Assembly: GCF_048403405.1 (NCBI RefSeq)
Contig: NZ_CP183133.1
From: Escherichia coli
GTDB lineage: Bacteria > Pseudomonadota > Gammaproteobacteria > Enterobacterales > Enterobacteriaceae
Length of the DNA stretch: 51,502 nucleotides
Reading direction: 5' to 3' (one strand)
Shown piece after piece: positions 5,216 to 30,767 of this stretch (its first letter is position 1; each line of letters starts with the position of its first letter). The notes beneath the pieces are model-generated. The model did not search any database. It saw only the letters and a list, made by a program, of their open reading frames with translations, and was not told where the DNA came from. Position numbers and translations under genes: made by a program.

Positions 5216-5300
5216 ATGTGCGGACGTTTTTCTCAGTCTATGACGCGGGAAGAGTATCTTTCTCTCCTCGCCAATGAAGCCGATCGAAATATTGCCTACG
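5216..5300 (+). pseudogene. SRAP (YedK-like, SOS-response-associated peptidase) gene start, truncated by IS903
   Basis: ATG at 5216 gives MCGRFSQSMTREEYLSLLANEADRNIAY; the MCGRF N-terminus with catalytic Cys2 is characteristic of SRAP proteins; ends at the IS903 IR (5301). Confidence 0.5.
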
Positions 5301-6357
5301 GGCTTTGTTGAATAAATCAGATTTCGGGTAAGTCTCCCCCGTAGCGGGTTGTGTTTTCAGGCAATACGCACGCTTTCAGGCATACCTGCTTTCGTCATTT
5401 TGTTCAGCGCTCGTACCAGGGCCATAGCCTCCGCAACCTGACCATCGTAGTCACGCAGCGTCAGTGAACCCCCGAACAGCTGTTTTACCCGGTACATCGC
5501 CGTTTCCGCTATCGAGCGACGGTTGTAATCTGTTGTCCATTTCCACCGCGCATTACTCCCGGTCATTCGCTGATTCGCAACAGCACGGTTACGGTCTGCA
5601 TATTCACCGGGCCAGTAACCCGCGCCTTTTCGGGGTGGGATAAGCGCGCTGATTTTCTTACGCCGCAGTTCATCGTGACAGAGCCGGGTGTCGTAAGCGC
5701 CGTCTGCCGATGCTGCCCTGATTTTTCTGTGAGTCTGCCGGATAAGACCCGGGAAGGCTTCTGAGTCCGTCACATTGTTCAGCGACAGGTCTGCACAGAT
5801 GATTTCATGTGTGTTGCTGTCAACTGCCAGATGCAGCTTACGCCAGATACGGCGGCGTTCCTGACCATGCTTTTTGACTTTCCACTCGCCTTCACCGAAG
5901 ACCTTCAGCCCGGTGGAATCAATTACCAGGTGTGCGATTTCACCCCGGGTGGGCGTTTTGAAACTGATATTAACCGACTTTGCCCGCCTGCTGACACAGC
6001 TGTAATCCGGGCAGCGTAGCGGAACGTTCATCAGAGAAAAAATGGAATCAATAAAGCCCTGCGCAGCGCGCAGGGTCAGCCTGAATACGCGTTTAATGAC
6101 CAGCACAGTCGTGATGGCAAGGTCAGAATAGCGCTGAGGTCTGCCTCGTGAAGAAGGTGTTGCTGACTCATACCAGGCCTGAATAGCTTCATCATCCAGC
6201 CAGAAAGTTATGGAGCCACGGTTGATGAGGGCTTTATTGTAGGTGGGCCAGTTGGTTATTTTGAACTTTTGCTTTGCCACGGAACGGTCTGCGTTGTCGG
6301 GAAGATGCGTGATCTGATCCTTCAACTCAGCAAAAGTTCGATTTATTCAACAAAGCC
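5301..6357 (-). mobile_element. IS903 (IS5 family), copy 1, 1057 bp
   Basis: 18-bp terminal IRs GGCTTTGTTGAATAAATC at 5301-5318 and inverted at 6340-6357; flanking 9-mers differ. Confidence 0.9.
5357..6280 (-). CDS. tnpA: IS903 transposase (307 aa, GTG start inside the 322-aa ORF)
   Basis: ORF translation ...[43 protein letters not shown]... matches IS903 transposase as I recall it. Confidence 0.85.
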   Translation of the reverse strand: MAKQKFKITNWPTYNKALINRGSITFWLDDEAIQAWYESATPSSRGRPQRYSDLAITTVLVIKRVFRLTLRAAQGFIDSIFSLMNVPLRCPDYSCVSRRAKSVNISFKTPTRGEIAHLVIDSTGLKVFGEGEWKVKKHGQERRRIWRKLHLAVDSNTHEIICADLSLNNVTDSEAFPGLIRQTHRKIRAASADGAYDTRLCHDELRRKKISALIPPRKGAGYWPGEYADRNRAVANQRMTGSNARWKWTTDYNRRSIAETAMYRVKQLFGGSLTLRDYDGQVAEAMALVRALNKMTKAGMPESVRIA

Positions 6358-6660
6358 CATTCAGTCCTCAATTTGTGCATTTTTTAAACGAAAAAAGGGT
6401 GTCTAATACGGTGAAATCATAGTATTACCAAAGTAATAAATAAAAAGTTATTTAAATCAGTAATTTAGATTTGATTTGTAATACCTGGGTAATACCGCAG
6501 CATGGCTAAATTTTGTTTTTTTTCTTTTAAATCAGTGCGATAGCGTGATTTATCACGCTGCGTTAGGTGTATAGCAGGTTAAGGGATAAAAAATCATCTT
6601 TTTTTGGTAGGGCGATCTCCGTAGGTTAAGGGGCATTTGGCTAAAAAGCGTCCTATTCTT

Positions 6661-6847
6661 TGATGGTCATGCTTGCATGACCATCTGAGCAACCAAAAAC
6701 TACAGATAAACTACAGATAAACTACAAAAAACGTTTTGCCTTAGTGTTGTAAGACTACAAATAGACTACAATAAAACTACAAATAAACTACAAAAAACGT
6801 GACAGACTACAAATAGACTACAATAAAACTACAGATAAACTACAAAA
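6661..6847. repeat. Regulatory repeat region: perfect palindrome GATGGTCATGC/GCATGACCATC (6661-6684) plus about 11 direct 11-bp units ACTACA(A/G)ATA(A/G)A in three clusters (6697-6847)
   Basis: Seen directly; AT-rich, immediately upstream of the HTH gene at 6906. Confidence 0.7.
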
Positions 6848-6905
6848 CTCGATTGACCCCTTCTTACGAGTGTTGTAGAGTCATTTTCATACAACGGAGG
6901 GGGTT

Positions 6906-7292
6906 ATGAATAAACCAGCAGATCTGAAACCCCGCAACTTATCGGCTGCTGTCAGATTGCGCCTAAATGAAATCGAGAACTGGCTGGACAGAGGGCTAAC
7001 GCGGCATGAAATTGCTGAAATCCTCGACAGCGAATACAGCTTTTCGGTAACAGCCAAAGGGCTTGAGATGGCACTGTATAGAACGCGGCAAAACCGAAAA
7101 AATGTATTGCACAATACGCATGATAAGAGTAGCGCGAAGGGTGCAGCGGAAAGTGTATTGCACAATACACAACCGTCTGAGCCTGAAGTGCAGGAAAGTA
7201 AAAAAGCAGAGAGTCCCGGCATTATTGATAAAGAATTCTTCAAGAAAATCGGTGAGAATTTCGACCCTAAGAAGTTCAACAAAAAATTCTGA
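6906..7292 (+). CDS. Small putative HTH DNA-binding protein (128 aa), function unknown
   Basis: RBS GGAGGGGG before ATG 6906; segment LTRHEIAEIL is HTH-like; coding sequence contains two copies of the near-palindrome GTATTGCACAATAC (7094-7107, 7155-7168). Confidence 0.55.
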   Translation: MNKPADLKPRNLSAAVRLRLNEIENWLDRGLTRHEIAEILDSEYSFSVTAKGLEMALYRTRQNRKNVLHNTHDKSSAKGAAESVLHNTQPSEPEVQESKKAESPGIIDKEFFKKIGENFDPKKFNKKF

Positions 7293-7300
7293 GGTGATTT

Positions 7301-7376
7301 ATGAAAGTAGCGGTAATTAATTACAGTGGCAGTGTTCGTAAAACCTTAATTTCATCTTACCTGTTAGCCCCGCGCG
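7301..7376 (+). pseudogene. ORF start (MKVAVINYSGSVRKTLISSYLLAPR) truncated by IS903 copy 2
   Basis: ATG 9 bp after the stop of the HTH gene; reading frame runs into the IS903 IR at 7377. Confidence 0.3.
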
Positions 7377-8432
7377 GCTTTGTTGAATAAATCAGATTTC
7401 GGGTAAGTCTCCCCCGTAGCGGGTTGTGTTTTCAGGCAATACGCACGCTTTCAGGCATACCTGCTTTCGTCATTTTGTTCAGCGCTCGTACCAGGGCCAT
7501 AGCCTCTGCAACCTGACCATCGTAGTCACGCAGTGTCAGTGAACCTCCGAACAGCTGTTTTACCCGGTACATCGCCGTTTCCGCTATCGAGCGACGGTTG
7601 TAATCTGTTGTCCATTTCCACCGCGCATTACTCCCGGTCAGCCGCTGATTCGCAACAGCACGGTTACGGTCTGCATATTCACCGGGCCAGTAACCCGCGC
7701 CTTTTCGGGGTGGGATAAGCGCGCTGATTTTCTTACGCCGCAGTTCATCGTGACAGAGCCGGGTGTCGTAAGCGCCGTCTGCCGATGCTGCCCTGATTTT
7801 TCTGTGAGTCTGCCGGATAAGACCCGGGAAGGCTTCTGAGTCCGTCACATTGTTCAGCGACAGGTTTGCACAGATGATTTCATGTGTGTTGCTGTCAACT
7901 GCCAGATGCAACTTTCGCCATATACGACGGCGTTCCTGGCCATGCTTTTTGACTTTCCATTCGCCTTCACCAAAGACCTTCAGCCCGGTGGAATCAATCA
8001 CCAGATGCGCGATTTCACCCCGGGTGAACGTTTTGAAACTGACATTAACCGACTTTGCGCGCTTGCTGACACTGGTGTAATCCGGGCAGCGCAACGGAAC
8101 ATTCATCAGTGTAAAAATGGAATCAATAAAACCCTGTGCAGCCCGCAGGGTCAACCTGAACACGCGTTTAATGACCAGAACGGTGGTGATGGCGAGATCA
8201 GAATAGCGCTGAGGTCTTCCCCGTGATGAAGGCGTTGCCGACTCATACCAGGCCTGAATAGCTTCATCATCCAGCCAGAAAGTTATGGAGCCACGGTTGA
8301 TGAGGGCTTTATTGTAGGTGGGCCAGTTGGTTATTTTGAACTTTTGCTTTGCCACGGAACGGTCTGCGTTGTCGGGAAGATGCGTGATCTGATCCTTCAA
8401 CTCAGCAAAAGTTCGATTTATTCAACAAAGCC
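7377..8432 (-). mobile_element. IS903, copy 2
   Basis: IRs GGCTTTGTTGAATAAATC at 7377-7394 and inverted at 8415-8432; about 98% identical to copy 1 by eye; no 9-bp target duplication. Confidence 0.9.
7432..8355 (-). CDS. tnpA: IS903 transposase
   Basis: 322-aa ORF nearly identical to copy 1. Confidence 0.85.
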   Translation of the reverse strand: MAKQKFKITNWPTYNKALINRGSITFWLDDEAIQAWYESATPSSRGRPQRYSDLAITTVLVIKRVFRLTLRAAQGFIDSIFTLMNVPLRCPDYTSVSKRAKSVNVSFKTFTRGEIAHLVIDSTGLKVFGEGEWKVKKHGQERRRIWRKLHLAVDSNTHEIICANLSLNNVTDSEAFPGLIRQTHRKIRAASADGAYDTRLCHDELRRKKISALIPPRKGAGYWPGEYADRNRAVANQRLTGSNARWKWTTDYNRRSIAETAMYRVKQLFGGSLTLRDYDGQVAEAMALVRALNKMTKAGMPESVRIA

Positions 8433-8512: not shown

Positions 8513-8920
8513 GATTAGCCTTAACTCGCGAACAGCAATGAAGAAGTCAAAGTAATCCCTTTTAACCCCGGTGAGCGGGCTTTACGGCGTTTACGACGTA
8601 AAGGGCGTGATTTCCGGGGCCTAAGCGGCGGCAGCTTGCTGCTGACGCTTAGGGGGATGTTCATCAACTATTTCAGCGACACCAGGGAACTTAACACGGT
8701 AGCTGCAAAGCCCTAATCCCGCTCACCGCCACGCAGCTGCCGTACGTCCCCCACGGGGGTGCGCAGTGCTGCGCGCGGGAACGGCGGCCCGTCTGCGGGA
8801 CGCGGCGCCGTACTGCGCGTTAGCGGCCGCACGCGGCCGGTTACGGGGGACACTCCGCCATACGACCAGCGACCCGCTGAGCTGCACAATCCACAGATAA
8901 CACAAGCTACATACATGTCG

Positions 8921-9716
8921 ATATGGGAATCGGCCCACCTTGCCGGGCGCCGGTGCCGTGTGGAAATCCGCCCACCTTGCCGCGCGCCGGTGCCGTGTGG
9001 GAATCCGCCCACCTTGCCGGGCGCCGGTGCTGTGTGGAAATCCGCCCACCTTGCCGCGCGCCGGTGCCGTGTGGGAATCCGCCCACCTTGCCGCGCGCCG
9101 GTGCCGTGTGGGAATCCGCCCACCTTGCCGGGCGCCGGTGCTGTGTGGAAATCCGCCCACCTTACCGGGCGCCGGTGCTGTGTGGAAATCCGCCCATCTT
9201 GCCGGGCGCCGGTGCCGTGTGGGAATCCGCCCACCTTGCCGGGCGCCGGTGCTGTGTGGAAATCCGCCCACCTTACCGGGCGCCGGTGCTGTGTGGAAAT
9301 CCGCCCATCTTGCCGGGCGCCGGTGCCGTGTGGGAATCCGCCCACCTTACCGGGCGCCGGTGCCGTGTGGGAATCCGCCCACCTTACCGGGCGCCGGTGC
9401 CGTGTGGGAATCCGCCCACCTTACCGGGCGCCGGTGCTGTGTGGAAATCCGCCCATCTTGCCGGGCGCCGGTGCCGTGTGGGAATCCGCCCACCTTGCCG
9501 GGCGCCGGTGCTGTGTGGAAATCCGCCCACCTTACCGGGCGCCGGTGCTGTGTGGAAATCCGCCCATCTTGCCGGGCGCCGGTGCCGTGTGGGAATCCGC
9601 CCACCTTACCGGGCGCCGGTGCCGTGTGGGAATCCGCCCACCTTACCGGGCGCCGGTGCCGTGTGGGAATCCGCCCACCTTACCGGGCGCCGGTGCTGTG
9701 TGGAAATCCGCCCATC
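8921..9716. repeat. Tandem array, about 21 copies of a 37-bp GC-rich unit (TGTGGGAATCCGCCCACCTTGCCGGGCGCCGGTGCCG); iteron-like, downstream of the truncated rep gene
   Basis: Motif CCCACCTT recurs at 8934, 8971, 9008, 9045 (period 37); units are contiguous with no spacers; variant positions alternate (G/C, C/T, G/A). Confidence 0.85.
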
Positions 9717-9765
9717 TTCATGACAAAAATTTGTCAAATGACAGGCTCATGTGTGCTGATTTATG

Positions 9766-10068
9766 TCAGACGGGATTTTGCTTATCAATTATTGAGAACA
9801 GAAATTTTCCTGAATCATCAATACTATACTTAGCAAGTAAAGGTGTTTTCTCATTTATCTGCTTGAGAGCAGGATCAAGGAAAGATCGTTTCAACTCTGC
9901 CAAGTTCTTCTGTTGGGATTCCGGCAAAAGGAAACGGTCATTTAACCAAGCATGAGTAGTAACCCATAAGCCTGAAGATTTGAATTGAGCAAGACTTTCA
10001 TAAAGGCGGATCGTCCGGGGATTTCGAAGACTGCCACAATCGCGGAGCGAGTAGGTGGTGAACTGGTT
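9766..10068 (-). pseudogene. Rep_3-family replication initiator, C-terminal fragment (5' end removed by IS1)
   Basis: Minus-strand translation ...LYESLAQFKSSGLWVTTHAWLNDRFLLPESQQKNLAELKRSFLDPALKQINEKTPLLAKYSIDDSGKFLFSIIDKQNPV* parallels the RepB C-terminus (RLYESLCQFRSTGVWITTHDWL...). Confidence 0.6.
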
Positions 10069-10083
10069 GGTAATGACTCCAAC

Positions 10084-10864: not shown

Positions 10865-12785
10865 TGTTAAATATGTCGCGGTAGGGATACCCGTTACCGG
10901 ATACCCCCCGCACAGATCCCGGCGTGCGCGATTTACGCACCGGGCTCCTGCCTCGGGTGTCTGGCGGTGAACCGCTCCACAGGCCATGGATGAAGAACCC
11001 GAACCCTTGGTAGCCATGCGGCTGCCAGTTTGTTTGCTTTCGTCCAGGTCGTATCATCCTTCTGGCTCCTGCGCCTGAGCGCCCGGCGCCAGAGGTTTGT
11101 TACGTGTGTCCTGAACTTCTGCATGGTGGGGAAGTTGCCCGGTACCGAGTGATAGTTCAGGTATCCCTGAACCACTCTCCTGAGCCATTTTCCCTGTTCG
11201 GGGATTGAGTAATGCCAGCGCCTTCGCAGACCGTCTTTGATGGCTTTCAGAGTTGCCGTCATCCGATCCCGGCGGGTCTTTCGTATCAGCATGAACCTGC
11301 CGTTGCGATCTTTCCCGCTGATGTGCGTGAACCCGAGGAAGTTGAACGTTTCTGGTTTGCCTTTTCCCCTGATGGCACGGTTTTCGGCAGCGAAGCGGCC
11401 GAACTCCATCAGACGGGTTTTCTCCGGGTGAACCGTGAGTCCGAACTCCCTCAGTCTGCGCTGCATGGCTATACGGAAGCGCCGGGCATCGTATCGTTTG
11501 TCGAACCCGATGACGATGTCATCGGCGTATCTGACCATTACCACATTGCCTGTGGCATAGCGACGTCGCCACTGATGCGCCCACAGATCGAAGACGTAGT
11601 GGAGGTATATGTTTGCCAGCAGCGGTGAGATGACCGCACCCTGTGGGGTGCCTTCCTCCGTTGCTCGCCATTGACCCTCCTCCAACGTCCCGGCTGTGAG
11701 CCACTTACGTATGAGCCTGATTACGCTCCGGTCGCCGATCCGATGCTCTGTGAACCTGATCAGCCATTCGTGGCTCACCCTGTCGAAGAACTGACTGATG
11801 TCGGCATCCAGTACCCAGTTTACGTTAGTGCGTACCAGCCCTGTGGCCAGTGCGTCCAGTGCATCGTGCTGGCTTCGCCCGGGTCTGAACCCGTATGAGA
11901 ACCCCATAAAGTCGTTTTCATAGACTGCGTTCAGGATTTTCACCAGCGCATACTGGACGATCTTGTCCTCCAGCGAGGCGATGCCGAGCGGGCGTTGTTT
12001 TCCATCCGCTTTTGGGATGTAGTGACGCCTGCCGGGCTGCGCCCTGTAGCTGCCCTGATGTAGCCTCCGGTGCAGATCTGTTATGTTGTTCTTCATGTTT
12101 CCGGCGTAGTCCATCCACCTGATGCCATCCACTCCGGCGGCCGCTTTCCTGCTCAGGGAGAGGAATGCGGCTTCCAGTGCTTCGACTGTCAGCAGGTGGA
12201 ACAATGCTGTAAACCGTTCTTTCTTCCGCTGCTTCGCAGCTTCCCGCACGCGTGACAGCCTCTGTGACATGCTTTCCCGGCTCTGTGTCCGGCGCATGTG
12301 TGGCTGTTCCGCGTTCCCCTTGGCCCCGCTCCTTCGCTCCACTGACTCCGCTCCTTTCGGGTTGTTCGCCTGCTTCGCCGCTACTATGAGCGAGTCCGAC
12401 TTCTCCTCTCCGTACATCACCGGCTATGACTCCTCGTCTTCCCGGTGCGGGCCGTCTCCGACACTGGCAGATGGTCAGAGGGGAGATCTCCCGGTTCCCG
12501 CGTAGAGATCGTATTGACATGCCAGGGTCTCAGACCCCGCCGGGTCCATGTGGCACTCGCAGTATCGCACCCTATGATGTTGCCTTCCGTTAACAGTACA
12601 ACGTCGGCACCCGGTAATTTAATATACATTTCGTGGCTCAATGGCTGGCCTGTCAACACCCCTGTCAACGCTTCGCCCCATACCTCGCGGTATGCAACGC
12701 ATGACTCGGGGACCTTGTGGATTGCTGGTCCTTCAATGGTCGGGGACTTTCACCCCTTGATCTCTACCGGTCTCCCGGCGAACAC
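10865..12785 (-). mobile_element. Group II intron (approximate boundaries) carrying an RT/maturase ORF
   Basis: Domain-V-like hairpin GAGCCCGGTGCGTAAATCGCGCACGCCGGGATC (minus strand, plus coords 10915-10947) overlaps the RT stop; about 490 nt of structured sequence lies 5' of the RT start; exact 5'/3' ends not resolved by eye. Confidence 0.5.
10933..12297 (-). CDS. Group II intron reverse transcriptase/maturase
   Basis: ORF translation has RT motifs (…KADGKQRPLGIASLEDKIVQ…GTPQGAVISPLLANIYLH…VRYADDIVIGF…) and a maturase-like C-terminus; start placed at MRRTQSRE (the ORF track extends to 12420). Confidence 0.8.
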   Translation of the reverse strand: MRRTQSRESMSQRLSRVREAAKQRKKERFTALFHLLTVEALEAAFLSLSRKAAAGVDGIRWMDYAGNMKNNITDLHRRLHQGSYRAQPGRRHYIPKADGKQRPLGIASLEDKIVQYALVKILNAVYENDFMGFSYGFRPGRSQHDALDALATGLVRTNVNWVLDADISQFFDRVSHEWLIRFTEHRIGDRSVIRLIRKWLTAGTLEEGQWRATEEGTPQGAVISPLLANIYLHYVFDLWAHQWRRRYATGNVVMVRYADDIVIGFDKRYDARRFRIAMQRRLREFGLTVHPEKTRLMEFGRFAAENRAIRGKGKPETFNFLGFTHISGKDRNGRFMLIRKTRRDRMTATLKAIKDGLRRRWHYSIPEQGKWLRRVVQGYLNYHSVPGNFPTMQKFRTHVTNLWRRALRRRSQKDDTTWTKANKLAAAWLPRVRVLHPWPVERFTARHPRQEPGA

Positions 12786-12800
12786 TGTATGTATAACCAG
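12785..12800 (+). promoter_or_regulatory. LexA-box-like operator (CTGTATGTATAACCAG) upstream of umuD
   Basis: Matches the CTGT-N8-ACAG SOS-box pattern with one half-site mismatch; 26 bp upstream of the umuD ATG. Confidence 0.5.
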
Positions 12801-12825
12801 TAAAATTAGAGTGTCAGGAGGAAAG

Positions 12826-13257
12826 ATGAAACTACAACTTTTCAGCACCGGGAAAGAACTCCCGCCACAGGCCCATCCATTGTTTGCCGATCTGGCCAGC
12901 TGCGGTTTTCCCAGCCCTGCTGCTGACTATGTCGAGTCCGATCTGGATCTCCATGATTACTGCATACGGCATCCGAGCGCGACGTACTACCTGCGTGCCA
13001 GCGGAGACAGCATGGCCGACGGCAGTCTGTACAATGGCGATCTGCTGGTTGTGGACAGTGCTGAAAAGCCGCGGCACGGCGATATCGTTGTCGCCAGCAT
13101 GCAGGGGGAGTTTACGGTGAAACGGCTTCTGCTGACGCCGCGACTGACGCTGCAGCCCATGAATGCCTCCTGGTCGCCGATTTATCCTGATCCCGACGAG
13201 CTGGATATCTTTGGCGTCGTCACGCATATCATCCACCGCCCGAGGGAGATGTACTGA
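12826..13257 (+). CDS. umuD: UmuD (translesion polymerase V accessory subunit)
   Basis: RBS AGGAGG before ATG 12826; translation [37 protein letters not shown]...[20 protein letters not shown]... resembles UmuD. Confidence 0.9.
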
Positions 13258-14528
13258 TGTTTGCCCTGGCCGATGTGAACAGCTTCTATGCCAGCTGTGA
13301 ACGTGTTTTCCGCCCGGATTTGAAAGGAAAGCCGATAGTCGTCCTGAGCAACAACGACGGGAATGTAATCGCTCGCAGTGCCGAGGCGAAGCCCTGGATC
13401 AAAATGGGAACTCCGTGGTTTCAGATAAAAAACGAAAGATACCCGGAAAAAATATATGCGTTTTCAAGTAATTATGAACTTTACGCCTCGATATCGGCGC
13501 GCGTGATGAACTGCCTGGAGGAACTGGCCCCCAGGGTGGAACAGTATTCAATTGATGAGATGTTCCTCGACCTGACCGGCGTGGAGCACTGTATGGGGCT
13601 TGAGGACTTCGCCCGGCAGCTGCGTCAGCAGGTGTATGACTGTACCCGCCTGACCATTGGCGTGGGCGCCGGACCAACGAAAACCCTCGCAAAATCAGCC
13701 CAGTGGGCCTCAAAAGAGTGGAAACAGTTTCATGGCGTACTCGCTCTGACCAGGGGAAATCCGCAAAGGACGCGGAAACTGCTTTCACTGCAGCCGGTTG
13801 AAGAAATCTGGGGGGTGGGTAACCGTATTGCACGCAAGCTAAATGTGCTGGGCATAAAAACCGCGCTCGATCTGGCTCTGACGAACCCGGCCTTCATCCG
13901 CAAAAATTTTTCTGTCGTCCTTGAGCGAACGGTACGGGAACTGAACGGGGAAAGCTGCCTTTCGCTTGAGGAAGCCCCTCCGACGAAACAGCAAATTGTC
14001 TGCAGCCGCAGTTTTGGCGTGAAGATCACGGAGTACGAGTCACTCCGTCAGGCTATCTGTCAGCACGCAGAGCGGGCCTCTGAAAAACTGCGTAAAGAGC
14101 ACCAGTATTGCCGGCATATTTCCGTTTTCATCAAAACGTCTCCGTTCGCCATTAAAGAGCCTTACTACGGCAACGTGGCTACGGAAAAACTTCTTACACC
14201 CACTCAGGACACCAGGGACATCATTGCAGCCGCTACAACGGCTCTGGAGCGTATCTGGAGGGATGGGCACCGGTATGCCAAAGCCGGAGTTATGCTGAAT
14301 GACTTCACCGGCTCCGGAGTTTCGCAGCTGCAACTGTTCGACGAACGCCCGCCACGCCCTCACAGTGCTGAGCTGATGAGGGTTCTGGACGGGATCAACA
14401 ACTCAGGGCTGGGTAAAGTATGGTTTGCGGGGCGGGGTATGGCCCCGGAATGGCAGATGAAACGGGAGATGCTTTCTCCTGCTTATACGACACGATGGTC
14501 AGATATTCCTGCAGCGAAACTGGCGTGA
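13257..14528 (+). CDS. umuC: UmuC (error-prone DNA polymerase V catalytic subunit)
   Basis: 423-aa [44 protein letters not shown]... (Y-family polymerase); ATGA overlap with the umuD stop. Confidence 0.9.
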
Positions 14529-14609: not shown

Positions 14610-15587
14610 TTATTGACTCAAATTTCTGTCAAGGACTTCGTTGATAGCCTTGTCCAGTTCATCCTGAATCACTTTTGACATACGGCTAAACTCATAAGTC
14701 AGCGTGCGCCCTTTCACACGCTTACGCGCGAACTTGTCCTTTTCTTCAAAAGACCAGAGTGGGGAAACCACTGACTTTTCCTTGGGAGATGGATCTATCA
14801 ATGCCTGAGATGCCTGAGAAATCAGCTTCAGAATACTGGCTTTCTGTTCGTCTTCTGGTCGCTCGCCATCACTCAAAATTGCATCGAGCTGAGCTGATAC
14901 AGACTGAATGAGTTCTTCAGGCGTTAATCCCTTTTCACCGAGTTTTTCATTAACTTCTAAAAGAAGTTTATAATCACTAAACGATAGCTCCGACTGAACC
15001 GGGAACAGAGAAATTAAGTCTTGCGGTACGGCCGCCGCCTGCAGCGCCCTGGTAACTTTAGCCTGAGATAATCCCTCCAGTTCAGCAATTTCCTTTTGAT
15101 TAAATCCGGACTCTTTAAGAGCGATCAATCTCAGACCAATCTCCCGAAGATTATGTTCTTTAGCTGTCTGGATATCTTTAGCCAGTTGGCGAGCTTCATC
15201 AGCTGATAAATGTTCTTCGGTAACCATTACATCAAGGCCTGTACGGACAAAAATTGCTGAGGCTCGCCGTCTTGAACCATCCAGTATCTCAATCCTTTCA
15301 CTTTGCTTAATACCAATACAGGGAAAGAACTGCTGAAACTTAATCGTCTGGATAATGGATTTCAGAGACTCCCTGGTCAGTGCAAGTTGATCTCTTCCAT
15401 TGTTTTCCTGGTTTACGAAGGTCTTACTTTCAACTTCAGATGCAGGCACCCGAACAAACCTGAACGTTACCTTCCTGCCGGTTTTTAAGGTAAATACCTG
15501 ACTTCTACCGGTGTCAGCCATTTCGAGCATTGACGCCTGAGTATTTAACTGTCTGCCGATGGTTTTTCTTTTCTCATTCGACATCAC
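14610..15587 (-). CDS. parB: ParB (P1 ParB-like centromere-binding protein)
   Basis: 325-aa ORF strongly resembles P1 ParB as I recall it (…IEILDGSRRRASAI…KEGLSQAKVTRALQAA…FARKRVKGR…). Confidence 0.9.
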   Translation of the reverse strand: MMSNEKRKTIGRQLNTQASMLEMADTGRSQVFTLKTGRKVTFRFVRVPASEVESKTFVNQENNGRDQLALTRESLKSIIQTIKFQQFFPCIGIKQSERIEILDGSRRRASAIFVRTGLDVMVTEEHLSADEARQLAKDIQTAKEHNLREIGLRLIALKESGFNQKEIAELEGLSQAKVTRALQAAAVPQDLISLFPVQSELSFSDYKLLLEVNEKLGEKGLTPEELIQSVSAQLDAILSDGERPEDEQKASILKLISQASQALIDPSPKEKSVVSPLWSFEEKDKFARKRVKGRTLTYEFSRMSKVIQDELDKAINEVLDRNLSQ

Positions 15588-16789
15588 ATACCTCCGTTAG
15601 TACGAATGAACTCGATGCGATCAAAGACTGCCTTCGCAAAGTCTTCCGCTGCTGATTTTGCGCTTTTTAGTGCCTCTGTACTTCCATCATAGGTTGCTGG
15701 ATTTGCTGAAATAACTGTGTCAAAAGTCTCCCCACAACGTTCGAAACCATCCAGTCTTGGCAGAACCATGTCTAGCATATCGGCACCGAAAACCTCTTTG
15801 GCCTGACTATGGCAAATTTTGTGATCAGACTTGTTCAGGATCTTGGACATGAAGCCGACATTACCGATGAGATTGCAGGTGTGCCCATCCATTTCGATGG
15901 AATCTATGAGGGCAGGGAGGCTGGCCACAAACTTCAGGGAAGAATGAAAATCAACCGTCGCCGGTGGAAGAGGGGTCAACATCAGGTCTGCCGCCCCAAT
16001 GCAGTTTTTCAGGAACGCATCAAGGTGAGGACCACTATCAAGGAAAATAAAGTCGTAGTCATGCTGGAGCTTGTCGATAATGTTCTCTTTAAGCACCGCA
16101 TGAATATTTTTCCCTGGCAGATGTTCTTCACACAATCCCTTCCAGCCTTCAGCAAGGAATGCATCGTCAATGGAAGCGGGGATTACATCAACACCAGGGA
16201 TAATAGACGGTACTATAAAATCGGAAAGTAATTCTTCACGAGACACGTTCTGGAGCATGGCCTGAGCAGCCGTATTTTCAACCAAGCCCACTGAATTCTC
16301 ATGGCTCAGGAACATTGTCAGAGATGCCTGCGGATCGAAATCGATGGCCAGAATACGCAGGTCTTCGAACAGAAGCTGAGGATGAGCTCGAAAAGCATGT
16401 GATAATGAAGCGGTAGAAACTGTCTTGGAACCACCACCTTTAAGATTACATACAAAAATCGTAAAGGCTTTATCGAAGCGATCCCTGTACTTCGGTACTT
16501 TACGATGGTTATACAGATCGATGACATTCTGAATCGTCATCGCGTATTTCATCGTATTACCAGAAGGTTTCTTTTTAAAAATGTAGCCACCGGCTTCCAT
16601 TTCGGACACAGCATACTCAACACTGCCTTTACTGAGCTTAGGCAGCTTATACAGAGCGGCTTTGCTGTATTCCTGATAGAACTCGGTAAGCTTCAATTCC
16701 TCTTTTTGCTGTCGGATACTTTCGCTCAAAGATGTCAGAAGCTTACCTGCACGTGTAGCGACTTTCCGTAACTGCTCAATATTGTCCAT
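15584..16789 (-). CDS. parA: ParA (type Ia partition ATPase with N-terminal HTH extension)
   Basis: 401-aa ORF with deviant Walker A NLKGGGSKT; 4-bp overlap with parB. Confidence 0.9.
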   Translation of the reverse strand: MDNIEQLRKVATRAGKLLTSLSESIRQQKEELKLTEFYQEYSKAALYKLPKLSKGSVEYAVSEMEAGGYIFKKKPSGNTMKYAMTIQNVIDLYNHRKVPKYRDRFDKAFTIFVCNLKGGGSKTVSTASLSHAFRAHPQLLFEDLRILAIDFDPQASLTMFLSHENSVGLVENTAAQAMLQNVSREELLSDFIVPSIIPGVDVIPASIDDAFLAEGWKGLCEEHLPGKNIHAVLKENIIDKLQHDYDFIFLDSGPHLDAFLKNCIGAADLMLTPLPPATVDFHSSLKFVASLPALIDSIEMDGHTCNLIGNVGFMSKILNKSDHKICHSQAKEVFGADMLDMVLPRLDGFERCGETFDTVISANPATYDGSTEALKSAKSAAEDFAKAVFDRIEFIRTNGGM

Positions 16790-17649: not shown

Positions 17650-18372
17650 CTATTGTTTTTTATCAAGAAAATTAAACAGCAAGCGACCATCTTCTTCAGT
17701 GGTATATGTTACCTTTAATGGCGTCTTCTCATTAATTTTCTTCAGAGCAGGTTCCAGGAAGGTACGCTTCATTTCAGCAATATTGTTTTTCTGCGAGGCA
17801 GGGAGCATAAACCTTTCACATAACCAGTCATGTGTGGTGATCCAGACACCAGTGCTCCGGAACTGACACAGGCTTTCATAAAGCCGGATGACACGAACAC
17901 TATTAAGCTGGCCACAGTCATAGAGAGAATAGGTAGTGAACTGGGAGGTTAAGCCGACCAGGAATGGCATGACCTTGTAGTTAAATTCAATCTGCCAGGA
18001 ACCCCGGCCTCGCTTCATTCCTGCTTCAGCCAGCCACGGACGTTTAACTTCTTCAAACTCACCTTCTTTTGGATAAAAGGTAACCGTTGATTCGCCCAGA
18101 GCATTTACCCCAGCCTTCACATCACGACTGGCGACAGACGTAGCGACATTGAAGTATTTGACGTAATCGGAAACGCTGATTTTGAAGAGCGGCAATACGT
18201 CAGAGTCATCTTCCTGGCTGTCATTAAAATAGGCCTGCATGAGGCATAACCACAGCACACGTTTTGCCTGAAGAGGCAGGTAATATGCAGCTTCGGTCAA
18301 TTCGTTAGATTGCTTTATACTGGCGCGTTTTTTAAACGTTTTAGTAGCTGGCAAGAGTGCTTGAGTATCCAT
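17650..18372 (-). CDS. repB: Replication initiator RepB (Rep_3 / RepE-like)
   Basis: Translation from MDTQALLPATKTFKKRASIKQSNELTEAAYYLPLQAKRVLWLCL…RLYESLCQFRS… parallels F RepE; start set at the inner ATG (18372) because the upstream in-frame ATG (18516) lies inside operator repeats. Confidence 0.8.
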   Translation of the reverse strand: MDTQALLPATKTFKKRASIKQSNELTEAAYYLPLQAKRVLWLCLMQAYFNDSQEDDSDVLPLFKISVSDYVKYFNVATSVASRDVKAGVNALGESTVTFYPKEGEFEEVKRPWLAEAGMKRGRGSWQIEFNYKVMPFLVGLTSQFTTYSLYDCGQLNSVRVIRLYESLCQFRSTGVWITTHDWLCERFMLPASQKNNIAEMKRTFLEPALKKINEKTPLKVTYTTEEDGRLLFNFLDKKQ

Positions 18373-18720
18373 TTCAATGCCTATGGGTAAATTTTTACCC
18401 ACCCATAATGACAGTGAAAACAGAAATTGCAAGCTATCGCGATACTTATCCACCGGAAAAATCTGCACTTTATCCACAAGTGGATAATTGAGAACTGAAC
18501 TTGACCTCTTTCCCATAGCTTGTTGATGCGTATCCCATAGCTTGTTGACACAAAACCCACTGATACGTGATTAATTTCCCATATTATGTTTACCAGTTGC
18601 CCATACAGGCCCCCTCTCAGGCCGCACTGTACGCGGCTTTCAGGCTCCCTAAAAGATGTAAAATAAAGAAAAAGAATAAAAAAGTACTTTATAAAAATAT
18701 GCCCGTGGATAAGTGGATAA
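18373..18720. promoter_or_regulatory. repB operator / putative oriV
   Basis: Inverted DnaA boxes TTATCCACAAGTGGATAA (18470-18487); two 16-bp direct repeats TCCCATAGCTTGTTGA (18501-18540); AT-rich tract 18640-18700; tandem DnaA boxes GTGGATAAGTGGATAA (18705-18720). Confidence 0.55.
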
Positions 18721-29862: not shown

Positions 29863-30767
29863 TTCACATCGGTAAGCGGCTGATGGTGGAAGATTTTTAC
29901 CGTGTCAGCGGCAATACGCTCTGCGGCAAAAATACCGCGCATCCGCGCCCAGGCGTTACTGTCGACTGAAGCAACCTGCTGCTTCTGCGCGGCGGTTAAT
30001 ATCTGCCAGAGCGGATCTTGTTGCCAGCGTTTAACAATGCTCTCTTCGCGATAGTGGGCAACCAGCAGCCAGGCAGGATTGACCGCCAGCAGTTGCTCCA
30101 GGCCGATGGACGGCATGGACGCGCCCGCCATCGCAGCGGGAACATTCAGCCCCAGAGAAGCCAGCACGCTGCCGGTCCAGGTCTCCTGGGTATGCAGGTT
30201 GAATAGCTGTTCGCGTGATGTGCCAAAGGCCACGCGTGTCCCTGTGGGAAGCTGGCTGGCCCACTGCGCCATCTTCTCTTTATGTTGTTCCAGACGCGCC
30301 TGCATCTCTCGTTTTTTACCTACCACTTCGCCGATGATAGCCGCTGAGTGCAAATTTTCAGCGTAGGTTTCGTTGCGGGACTTAAGCAGCAGTACCGGCG
30401 CGATTTGCTGCAAGGCGGTGTAAATCCCCGCATGGCGACTGCTGTCGGCAATGATCAGGTCTGGTTTCAGGGCAGCAATGGCTTCCAGGCTCGGCTGCGC
30501 GCGCGTTCCGACGGACTGCCACGGTTTCAGGTGCGCACGCACTTCGGGCATGATGCGTTTTGCATCGTTATCGTCGGCAATACCGATCGGGCTGACGTCC
30601 ACGGCGGCCAGCGCATCGGCGAACGAGAGTTCCAGCACCACAATCCGTTGTGGCGTTTTATCGAGTGTAAACGTGCCGTGTTCGTCCTGAACCGTGGCGG
30701 CAAAGGCGTGGCCGATCACCAGCAGCAGGCCTGCAAAAATAAAACGGATAAATGCCAACATAGTCAC
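29859..30767 (-). CDS. fecB: Periplasmic ferric citrate-binding protein FecB
   Basis: 302 aa with signal peptide; siderophore-type periplasmic binding fold. Confidence 0.85.
   Translation of the reverse strand: MTMLAFIRFIFAGLLLVIGHAFAATVQDEHGTFTLDKTPQRIVVLELSFADALAAVDVSPIGIADDNDAKRIMPEVRAHLKPWQSVGTRAQPSLEAIAALKPDLIIADSSRHAGIYTALQQIAPVLLLKSRNETYAENLHSAAIIGEVVGKKREMQARLEQHKEKMAQWASQLPTGTRVAFGTSREQLFNLHTQETWTGSVLASLGLNVPAAMAGASMPSIGLEQLLAVNPAWLLVAHYREESIVKRWQQDPLWQILTAAQKQQVASVDSNAWARMRGIFAAERIAADTVKIFHHQPLTDVK

Follow-up and report, generated by a model that had tools for sequence, protein, structure and literature searches.

In the stb locus of the IncW plasmid R388, the stbA promoter region carries two sets of five 9-bp direct repeats (stbDRs) that stand 2 bp apart, which results in an 11-bp period (PMC3098194; bioRxiv 10.1101/2022.04.29.490116). 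R388 StbA has a PadR-related HTH of three helices, and its C-terminal half is poorly structured (bioRxiv 10.1101/2022.04.29.490116); the protein binds the stbDRs and represses its own promoter, PstbA, approximately 50-fold (PMC3098194; bioRxiv 10.1101/2022.04.29.490116; PMC3937220). The repeat region, stbS, is required for plasmid stability but dispensable for conjugation, while deletion of stbB abolishes conjugation and leaves stability unchanged, and segregation needs no plasmid NTPase (PMC3098194; bioRxiv 10.1101/2022.04.29.490116). In R388, StbA blocks transfer when StbB is missing. Quebre et al. have likened R388 StbA to TubR-tubC (type III partition) and to AspA of pNOB8, in which an HTH centromere-binding protein coats sets of direct repeats; the motor proteins differ. 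The IncN reference plasmid R46 has mobF, the T4CP gene and traK on one strand, followed by oriT, and stbA, stbB and stbC on the other strand. Note that the StbA of R1/NR1 is the actin-like ParM, which is unrelated to IncN/IncW StbA; hence the NCBIfam label StbA_2 for the IncN/IncW family.

Here we analysed a 51,502-nucleotide stretch of Escherichia coli DNA (contig NZ_CP183133.1; hereafter the window, with positions counted from its first letter). Most widely, the window is an IncR plasmid backbone (repB, parAB, umuDC, resolvase, vapBC). Positions 6358-7375 (1018 bp) hold an IncN-type oriT, a stbS-like repeat array, stbA and the 5' part of stbB. In all likelihood, this segment is the oriT-proximal end of an IncN (MOBF, R46/pKM101-like) plasmid that was joined to an IncR plasmid and later trimmed by IS903, and that carries an oriT nic region, an inverted repeat, an 11-repeat ACTACA centromere/operator array and an intact, probably autoregulated stbA. 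The features of the locus are as follows:

5301-6357, minus strand: IS903B copy 1, 1057 bp, with 18-bp terminal inverted repeats and a 322-aa transposase ORF (5357-6325)
6358-6661, plus strand: IncN-type oriT core; columns ~170-300 of the alignment are invariant relative to R46 and another IncN plasmid
6662-6685, no strand assigned: perfect inverted repeat GATGGTCATGC-TT-GCATGACCATC (arms 6662-6672 and 6675-6685; 11-nt arms, 100% complementary, 2 nt between them)
6699-6849, plus strand: stbS-like array of eleven 11-bp direct repeats with core ACTACA (from core positions and Tandem Repeats Finder)
6853-6881, plus strand: sigma-70-like stbA promoter TTGACC-17-TAGAGT (hexamer match), starting 4 bp past the last repeat
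6906-7292, plus strand: stbA, 128 aa (ORF; NF041290 match)
7103-7118, no strand assigned: palindrome copy 1, TGTATTG-CA-CAATAC(G), i.e. TGTATTGCACAATACG, encoding VLHNT, one mismatch
7154-7169, no strand assigned: palindrome copy 2, TGTATTGCACAATACA, encoding VLHNT, exact match
7301-7375, plus strand: 5' end of stbB (ParA-like ATPase), first 25 codons (alignment to R46 stbB)
7376-8432, minus strand: IS903 copy 2, 1057 bp, with 18-bp terminal inverted repeats, 95.9% identical to copy 1
8703-10071, minus strand: second IncN relic, 37-bp iterons and the 3' end of repA, beyond IS903 copy 2

An earlier sequence-only reading had described a partition/stability or relaxosome-accessory module left as a remnant between two IS903 copies. 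Our analysis supports that description and puts names to its parts: the DNA-binding protein is StbA, the truncated gene is stbB, the repeats are the counterpart of stbDR/stbS, and an IncN oriT adjoins them. Three points refine it, namely that the protein is an HTH and not an RHH ParR, that the segment also holds a complete oriT nic region, as judged from the alignments below, and that the motif of the intragenic palindromes is also found intergenically in IncN plasmids.

The segment has sharp borders, with an IS903B copy at each. On the left it begins exactly at the traK start codon (CAT at 6358-6360, the reverse complement of ATG), which the right end of IS903B copy 1 abuts, and on the right it ends after stbB codon 25; in identical plasmid contexts copy 1 is labelled an IS5-like IS903B family transposase. 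Both flanking copies, which the sequence-only reading had named, share the 18-bp terminal inverted repeat GGCTTTGTTGAATAAATC. Comparing the flanks TTGCCTACG / CATTCAGTC and GCCCCGCGC / GTCTGTGTT in all combinations, we found neither copy, nor the two as a unit, to be flanked by 9-bp target duplications. An IS903 composite transposon is thus rejected, and since target duplications are absent and the IS copies are only 95.9% identical, the structure is better explained by insertions followed by deletions or inversions. Relative to R46, the second IncN relic at 8703-10071 is inverted; its iteron array comprises 21.5 copies of the 37-bp unit (8924-9718).

The order mobF-T4CP-traK, oriT, stbA-stbB-stbC, with the two operons diverging from oriT, is complete in the intact loci R46, L006, L008, L009, L014 and L015. 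In the window the remaining neighbours of stbA are oriT and 25 stbB codons; traK, stbC and the rest of the plasmid are missing, as is any relaxase operon. We aligned the segment with R46, with the intact IncN plasmid pRHBSTW-00140_3 (NZ_CP058130), which carries the same stbA type, and with a second relic. The nic region of oriT is invariant, and the stbA 3' half and the start of stbB are conserved. R46/pKM101 resembles the window in gene order, oriT nic region, inner inverted repeat and VLHNT palindromes; the stbA 3' half is 89% identical to that of R46 in DNA and the stbB 5' end is near-identical. In contrast, the repeats and the stbA 5' half are a different allele: across them the DNA of R46 and the window cannot be aligned, the repeat core is TACATCA in R46 and ACTACA here, the N-terminal HTH differs, and overall StbA protein identity is 56%. 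The counts differ as well, with 13 repeats and three intra-stbA palindromes in R46 versus 11 and two in the window. pRHBSTW-00140_3 is closer, being 91.9% identical over the 1018 bp and sharing the ACTACA repeats, the 128-aa StbA and the two palindromes, but it has 12 repeats (in sets of 3, 5 and 4), an R46-like left part of oriT and an intact stbB with GGT (Gly) in the Walker A motif, as well as traK, stbC and further palindrome sites.

The 128-aa product of ORF 6906-7292, described earlier as an HTH protein in need of a profile search, matches the NCBIfam equivalog model NF041290 (StbA_2) over its full length with 204.1 bits (cutoff 100), which places it in the StbA family; all StbA homologues carry the precomputed Pfam assignment PF28167 (StbA-like). 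A local Pfam-A scan of the protein gave nothing significant, the only match being a weak one to Clr5 (E 0.045). A single-sequence phmmer search of the PDB returned just a spurious match to bS20, and a profile of homologues was needed to reach 7PC1: built from ten IncN-type StbA proteins, it found 7pc1_A, the R388 StbA DNA-binding domain, with an E value of 1.2e-3 over profile positions 6-63. In BLASTP, the window StbA and R388 StbA are 30% identical over 57 residues (E 7e-5). In the AlphaFold2 model, residues 12-28, 33-43 and 50-72 form helices (pLDDT above 90), residues from approximately 75 to 105 are disordered, and a short conserved C-terminal tail follows. By BLASTP, profile match and model, the N-terminus is therefore a three-helix HTH homologous to residues 1-75 of R388 StbA, followed by a poorly structured C-terminal half. 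The HTH N-terminus and disordered C-terminal half are common to both proteins, as are at least two sets of 11-bp-spaced direct repeats that lie between oriT and stbA and reach the stbA promoter, and a deviant Walker A motif in the stbB of R388 and IncN-type plasmids. The sequences themselves are distant, with approximately 30% identity confined to the HTH and a different repeat in R388 (ATGATGCAA, or TTGCATCAT on the other strand); R388 StbA goes unrecognised by NF041290 and is annotated as hypothetical in record NC_028464.

This fold bears on the question of whether the locus is a classical ParR/ParM (type II) or ParG/ParB-ParA (type I) cassette, i.e. a parC-like centromere with an RHH adaptor and a downstream motor that is needed for segregation. 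Repeats followed by a small DNA-binding protein and then by a Walker-type ATPase gene do resemble a par operon, and Guynet et al. themselves note the ParB-like/ParA-like analogy. However, the modelled protein is an all-helical three-helix HTH and not an RHH, no ParR, ParG or ParB family was matched in the Pfam and NCBIfam scans of the 128-aa protein, and the R388 ATPase is dispensable for stability; a par cassette is accordingly very improbable. Of the families offered in the sequence-only reading, the HTH/StbA option has stood and the ParR/RHH option has fallen.

The array upstream of stbA comprises eleven ACTACA cores, starting at 6699, 6710, 6721, 6754, 6765, 6776, 6787, 6806, 6817, 6828 and 6839 (spacings 11, 11, 33, 11, 11, 11, 19, 11, 11 and 11). 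These form three clusters, 6699-6731 (3 copies), 6754-6797 (4) and 6806-6849 (4), of which the first two are in helical phase (33 bp apart) and the third is offset by 8 bp. Tandem Repeats Finder independently found the 11-bp period, and the array holds all but four of the 15 plus-strand ACTACA hexamers in the 51.5-kb window. Allowing one mismatch, ACTACARATAR has eight matches in the window, all of them in the array, versus 1.23 expected, and none of 100 shuffles reached eight. The earlier count of about 11 repeats is thus right, while the longer consensus given with it is exact in six copies and carries one mismatch in two; the remaining three share the core only. A GGAGG ribosome-binding site precedes the stbA ATG at 6906, an inverted CTACA core (TGTAG) overlaps the -10 hexamer of the stbA promoter, and the same promoter hexamers are present in the diverged locus L008.

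Arrays were counted in eight loci, and in R388 (NC_028464) by a simple pattern:

Window: 11 repeats, core ACTACA
Relic L005: 11 repeats, core ACTACA
pRHBSTW-00140_3: 12 repeats, core ACTAC
L008: 9 repeats, core ACTAC
R46: 13 repeats, core of the TACATCA type
L009: 9 repeats, core of the TACATCA type
L014: 10 repeats, core of the TACATCA type
L015: 9 repeats, core of the AGACA type
R388: 9 repeats by simple pattern, core ATGATGCA

Every homologous locus has 9-13 direct repeats upstream of stbA with an 11-bp period, always in sets; an absence of repeats from such loci, which would have spoken against a maintenance module, was seen in none of those examined. Loci that differ in the sequence of the StbA HTH differ in the repeat core as well, and the nic region is constant across the aligned IncN-type loci. 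L008 keeps ACTAC in its repeats but lets the five intervening bases vary freely, which points to a putative StbA recognition core of approximately 5-6 bp. The array is the counterpart of R388 stbS/stbDR, and the joint variation of core and HTH suggests that this StbA allele would bind it.

By analogy with R388, StbA monomers would use their N-terminal HTH to bind successive repeats on one face of the helix. As the array reaches up to the -35 hexamer, bound StbA would repress the stb promoter, again as in R388, and the same StbA-array complex would also serve in partition, holding plasmid copies in position on the nucleoid. For the allele and plasmid at hand, DNA binding, repression and any stabilising or mobilising activity are expectations carried over from R388. 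Phased direct repeats in an AT-rich region may also suggest replication iterons, with the small protein as part of a replicon. Against this, StbA lacks similarity to Rep proteins in the Pfam and NCBIfam scans, the IncN replicon has its own 37-bp iterons at 8924-9718 beside the repA remnant, and this plasmid has IncR repB, further downstream, as its replicon, which leaves the iteron explanation with a negligible probability.

The oriT core on the other side of the array carries the hairpin AGCGTGA-TTTA-TCACGCT at 6542-6559. We predict the nic site between T6570 and A6571 (GGTGT/ATAGC) by alignment to the R388 nic site, which we take to lie at GTCT/ATAGCC. Positions 6530-6655 are invariant or nearly so relative to R46 and two other IncN-type loci, as befits a MOBF nic region. 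The oriT is therefore apparently complete, and an IncN helper plasmid could use it in trans.

Given this setting, the repeats and the inverted repeat might primarily be relaxosome/oriT architecture for transfer accessory proteins, with StbA mainly a conjugation regulator and the relic a mobilisation site rather than a stability element. The repeats do lie approximately 130-280 bp from the predicted nic site, inside the traK-stbA intergenic region; R388 StbA controls conjugation; and in PLSDB/MOB-suite several relic-bearing IncR plasmids are typed as "mobilizable", with no relaxase listed for them. The R46 oriT was reportedly defined at first (Coupland and colleagues, 1987) so as to include 13 such 11-bp repeats, the same number that we count in R46. 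Nevertheless, R388 stbS is required for stability and not for conjugation, and the repeat core co-varies with the StbA HTH while the nic region stays constant; we consider a primarily relaxosomal role to be improbable. Under the preferred reading, in which the array serves StbA-dependent stability and autoregulation, the relic would keep a minimal unit for both functions, since R388 stability needs no stbB. Mobilisation, on the other hand, may depend on StbB supplied by a helper because R388 StbA without StbB blocks transfer, and by the same analogy the oriT in the relic may be poorly usable.

Between the oriT core and the array lies the 11-bp-arm perfect palindrome that was noticed in the sequence-only reading and that we find at 6662-6685 with fully complementary arms. 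All eight IncN-type loci that we compared share the inner 14 bp, TCATGCTTGCATGA, without a change. Outside this core, the arms vary yet stay complementary (GATGG/CCATC, GGTAT/ATACC and CCTT/AAGG), and the arm variant tracks the StbA/repeat type. In a six-sequence alignment 97% of cells are paired and 4 of the 11 pairs are changed on both sides; the covariation score was reached by none of 500 shuffles, and controls slid along the alignment collapse. The indicated compensatory change of the arms, with three independent arm variants, is supportive rather than strong. R388 has an analogous inverted repeat with 10-bp arms in the same place, directly before its array. The element could serve as a protein-binding site with dyad symmetry, or it could form a hairpin in the transferred strand.

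The two near-palindromes that had been noticed inside the HTH gene are copies, one with a single mismatch and one exact, of the 16-bp palindrome TGTATTG-CA-CAATACA, which, read as xxT GTA TTG CAC AAT ACA, encodes VLHNT. The mismatch in copy 1 is an ACG codon where L005, L006 and L008 have ACA. Counting both strands, the window has four palindrome matches versus 0.25 expected, and R46 has nine versus 0.29. Within stbA the palindromes fall in the disordered linker predicted by the AlphaFold2 model, and their number varies with the protein: one in 111-aa proteins, two in the window, three in R46 and in 143-145-aa proteins, and four in a 150-aa protein. The motif also occurs outside stbA. In R46, an exact copy at 30004-30019 separates a promoter-like TATAAA from the ribosome-binding site of a SprT-like gene, and a one-mismatch copy lies directly past the stop codon of the gene following stbC, the last of the stb operon; both intergenic copies are exact in pRHBSTW-00140_3, and the one past the gene following stbC is exact in L009. 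Nowhere in R388 did we find the 16-bp palindrome, and a search of R388 for repeated palindromes was likewise without result.

Several observations set the DNA sequence of the motif apart from the peptide. L008 stbA has synonymous differences from the window in 26 of 101 conserved codons, yet all four palindromes are exact 16-mers, and the codon before each of them always ends in T despite encoding H, G, S or N. The same T-ending codon precedes the palindromes of L014, where the residues are S, P and D. L015, a distant MOBF plasmid (IncU/rep_cluster_1760), carries the variant TGGATTG-CA-CAATCCA three times in the stbA linker, one of them exact on both arms, encoding G/R-L-H/Q-N-P (GLHNP), and twice more in front of the SprT-like gene. 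As coding and intergenic sites in L015 share the variant, they have changed together, and the peptide followed the DNA; this points to selection on the palindrome as DNA rather than as peptide. Such comparative evidence argues that the site works at the level of DNA, the simplest case being an operator bound by a dimeric regulator. That the intra-stbA palindromes are operators for a sequence-specific plasmid regulator, placed in the linker codons with VLHNT as a by-product, is a tentative proposal to which we give somewhat less than even chances. Were it correct, the regulator, once bound, could block the way within stbA and thereby set the StbA:StbB ratio, and hence the balance of stability and transfer, and the palindromes in the IncR relic would be orphan sites.

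As to what might bind the 16-bp palindrome, ArdK, a repressor of the TrfB family that is reported to bind CUP elements (PMC6289460), is a candidate only, and one because all five CUP elements of R46 carry the half-site TGTATTG, beside the -35 hexamer. The region of the ArdK recognition helix is similar in R46 and L014, which have the palindrome in common, and different in L015 and R388, a comparison that does not discriminate because the pattern follows overall relatedness; CUP-like TGGATTG sites were not seen in L015. StbC was rejected as a binder, having a hydrophobic, transmembrane-like C-terminal helix and no match to a DNA-binding family, and searches with orf114 and the SprT-like protein yielded no family information. 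LexA and CRP were set aside by eye, as the half-site spacing does not fit (TGTAT-N6-ATACA and CTGT-N10-ACAG). A literature search for the palindrome sequence returned one unrelated paper; older IncN papers lay outside that search, and a prior description is possible.

The gene downstream of stbA, earlier described as an ORF cut by IS903 after 25 codons, starts at 7301 and meets the IS903 end at 7376. Its intact homologue is stbB: the full-length R46 neighbours match the NCBIfam StbB and StbC models, StbB through NF041292. The window thus lacks an intact StbB (an NF041292 match of approximately 238 aa with a deviant Walker A motif), and what is left carries a further lesion, GSVRKT in place of the GSVGKT of intact homologues (CGT for GGT, turning the P-loop Gly into Arg). 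stbB is dead in the window. Relic L005, whose ends are an IS26 inside traK and an IS1 at stbB codon 63, has the same Gly to Arg substitution; since this differently trimmed relic shares it, either the P-loop change predates the IS903 cut or both relics come from one damaged ancestor.

The arrangement is widespread. In PLSDB the 1018-bp inter-IS segment matches 1876 plasmids, 532 of them at 99% identity or more; the hosts of the latter are mostly Klebsiella, Escherichia and Enterobacter, and the gene is labelled there as stbA, "plasmid stabilization protein StbA". IS903B-stbA-IS903B followed by IS1 has been reported on IncR plasmids (PMC11792461), and the same IS903B-stbA-IS903B arrangement is annotated in many plasmid records. 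The 532 near-identical copies represent the spread of one arrangement and do not imply independent retention. Some copies elsewhere have a frameshifted stbA (P0066, P0099), and the relic may be inert. The module as such is already known and widely disseminated; only the intragenic palindromes and their joint change with the intergenic copies might surprise a plasmid specialist.

Annotators can expect to meet this relic repeatedly, and can recognise it, on IncR and other resistance plasmids of Klebsiella, E. coli and Enterobacter. Judged by R388, it would keep everything needed for StbA-dependent stability, which could matter in practice. A co-resident IncN plasmid could use the oriT of the relic, and incoming IncN plasmids could meet interference from the relic and the 37-bp IncN iterons beside it. 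Finally, if the palindromes are operators, they would be a clear example of how regulatory sites in DNA can constrain the sequence of a disordered linker in a protein.

The stb relic lies in an IncR plasmid, as its surroundings show: besides umuDC and parAB, they include the IncR repB and a reverse transcriptase of a group II intron. The host plasmid thus has its own ParAB partition system in addition to the StbA relic. Features in and around the relic are as follows, in window coordinates:

5216-5300, short ORF starting MCGRFSQSMTREEY, of which IS903 copy 1 leaves about 28 codons
7319-7321, stbB codon 7 (Walker A glycine position), CGT
8703-10071, second IncN relic, adjoining IS903 copy 2 and inverted relative to R46
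10933-12420, group II intron reverse transcriptase
12445-14528, umuDC
14610-16789, parAB
17650-18516, IncR repB
47281-48336, third IS903-like copy, in the opposite orientation, 89% identical to copy 1

The start of the truncated ORF may resemble those of SOS-response-associated peptidase (SRAP/YedK-like) genes. In the second IncN relic the 37-bp IncN iteron is tandemly repeated 21.5 times (8924-9718), accompanied by the 3' end of repA; long overlapping ORFs in this stretch (e.g. 8759-9955) are repeat artefacts.

Codon 7 of the stbB stump encodes Arg, giving GSVRKT, while every intact stbB that we examined has GGT at this Walker A glycine codon. The identical CGT change is found at 4962-4964 of L005, a relic that was trimmed independently by IS26 and IS1.

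When the inverted repeat near oriT (window 6662-6685) was compared with its equivalents in R46 (L004), the homologous loci L008, L009 and L014 and the distant MOBF plasmid L015, the outer arms showed compensatory changes, and the arm variant followed the StbA/repeat specificity type. For two of these three types the right arm is similar to the direct-repeat core, so the inverted repeat may be a site for StbA itself.

The palindromes within stbA are copies of one 16-bp motif, which recurs at coding and intergenic sites:

window 7103-7118 and 7154-7169, palindromes in stbA
R46, 20688-20799, 22547-22562 and 30004-30019, motif sites
L014, 12201-12318, 13941 and 19972, motif sites
L015, 18445-18556 and 19936-19979, motif variant sites

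The leading region of R46 also holds a separate exact palindrome, CGTGACAGTCACG, at three positions (22177, 22279 and 27311), lying upstream of and within the gene after stbC and immediately upstream of ardR; it is absent from the 51,502-nt window.

StbA proteins are 111, 128, 139-145 or 150 aa long (window 7103-7169; alignment A2, with P0087, P0015, P0001 and P0088), because the number of VLHNT/palindrome units, which sit in a predicted disordered linker, ranges from 1 to 4. Further copies of the 16-bp motif are located upstream of a SprT-like gene and downstream of the stb operon in IncN plasmids. In L015 the variant TGGATTGCACAATCCA is present at coding and intergenic sites alike, and the peptide encoded in stbA is altered along with it, which points to a constraint at the DNA level.
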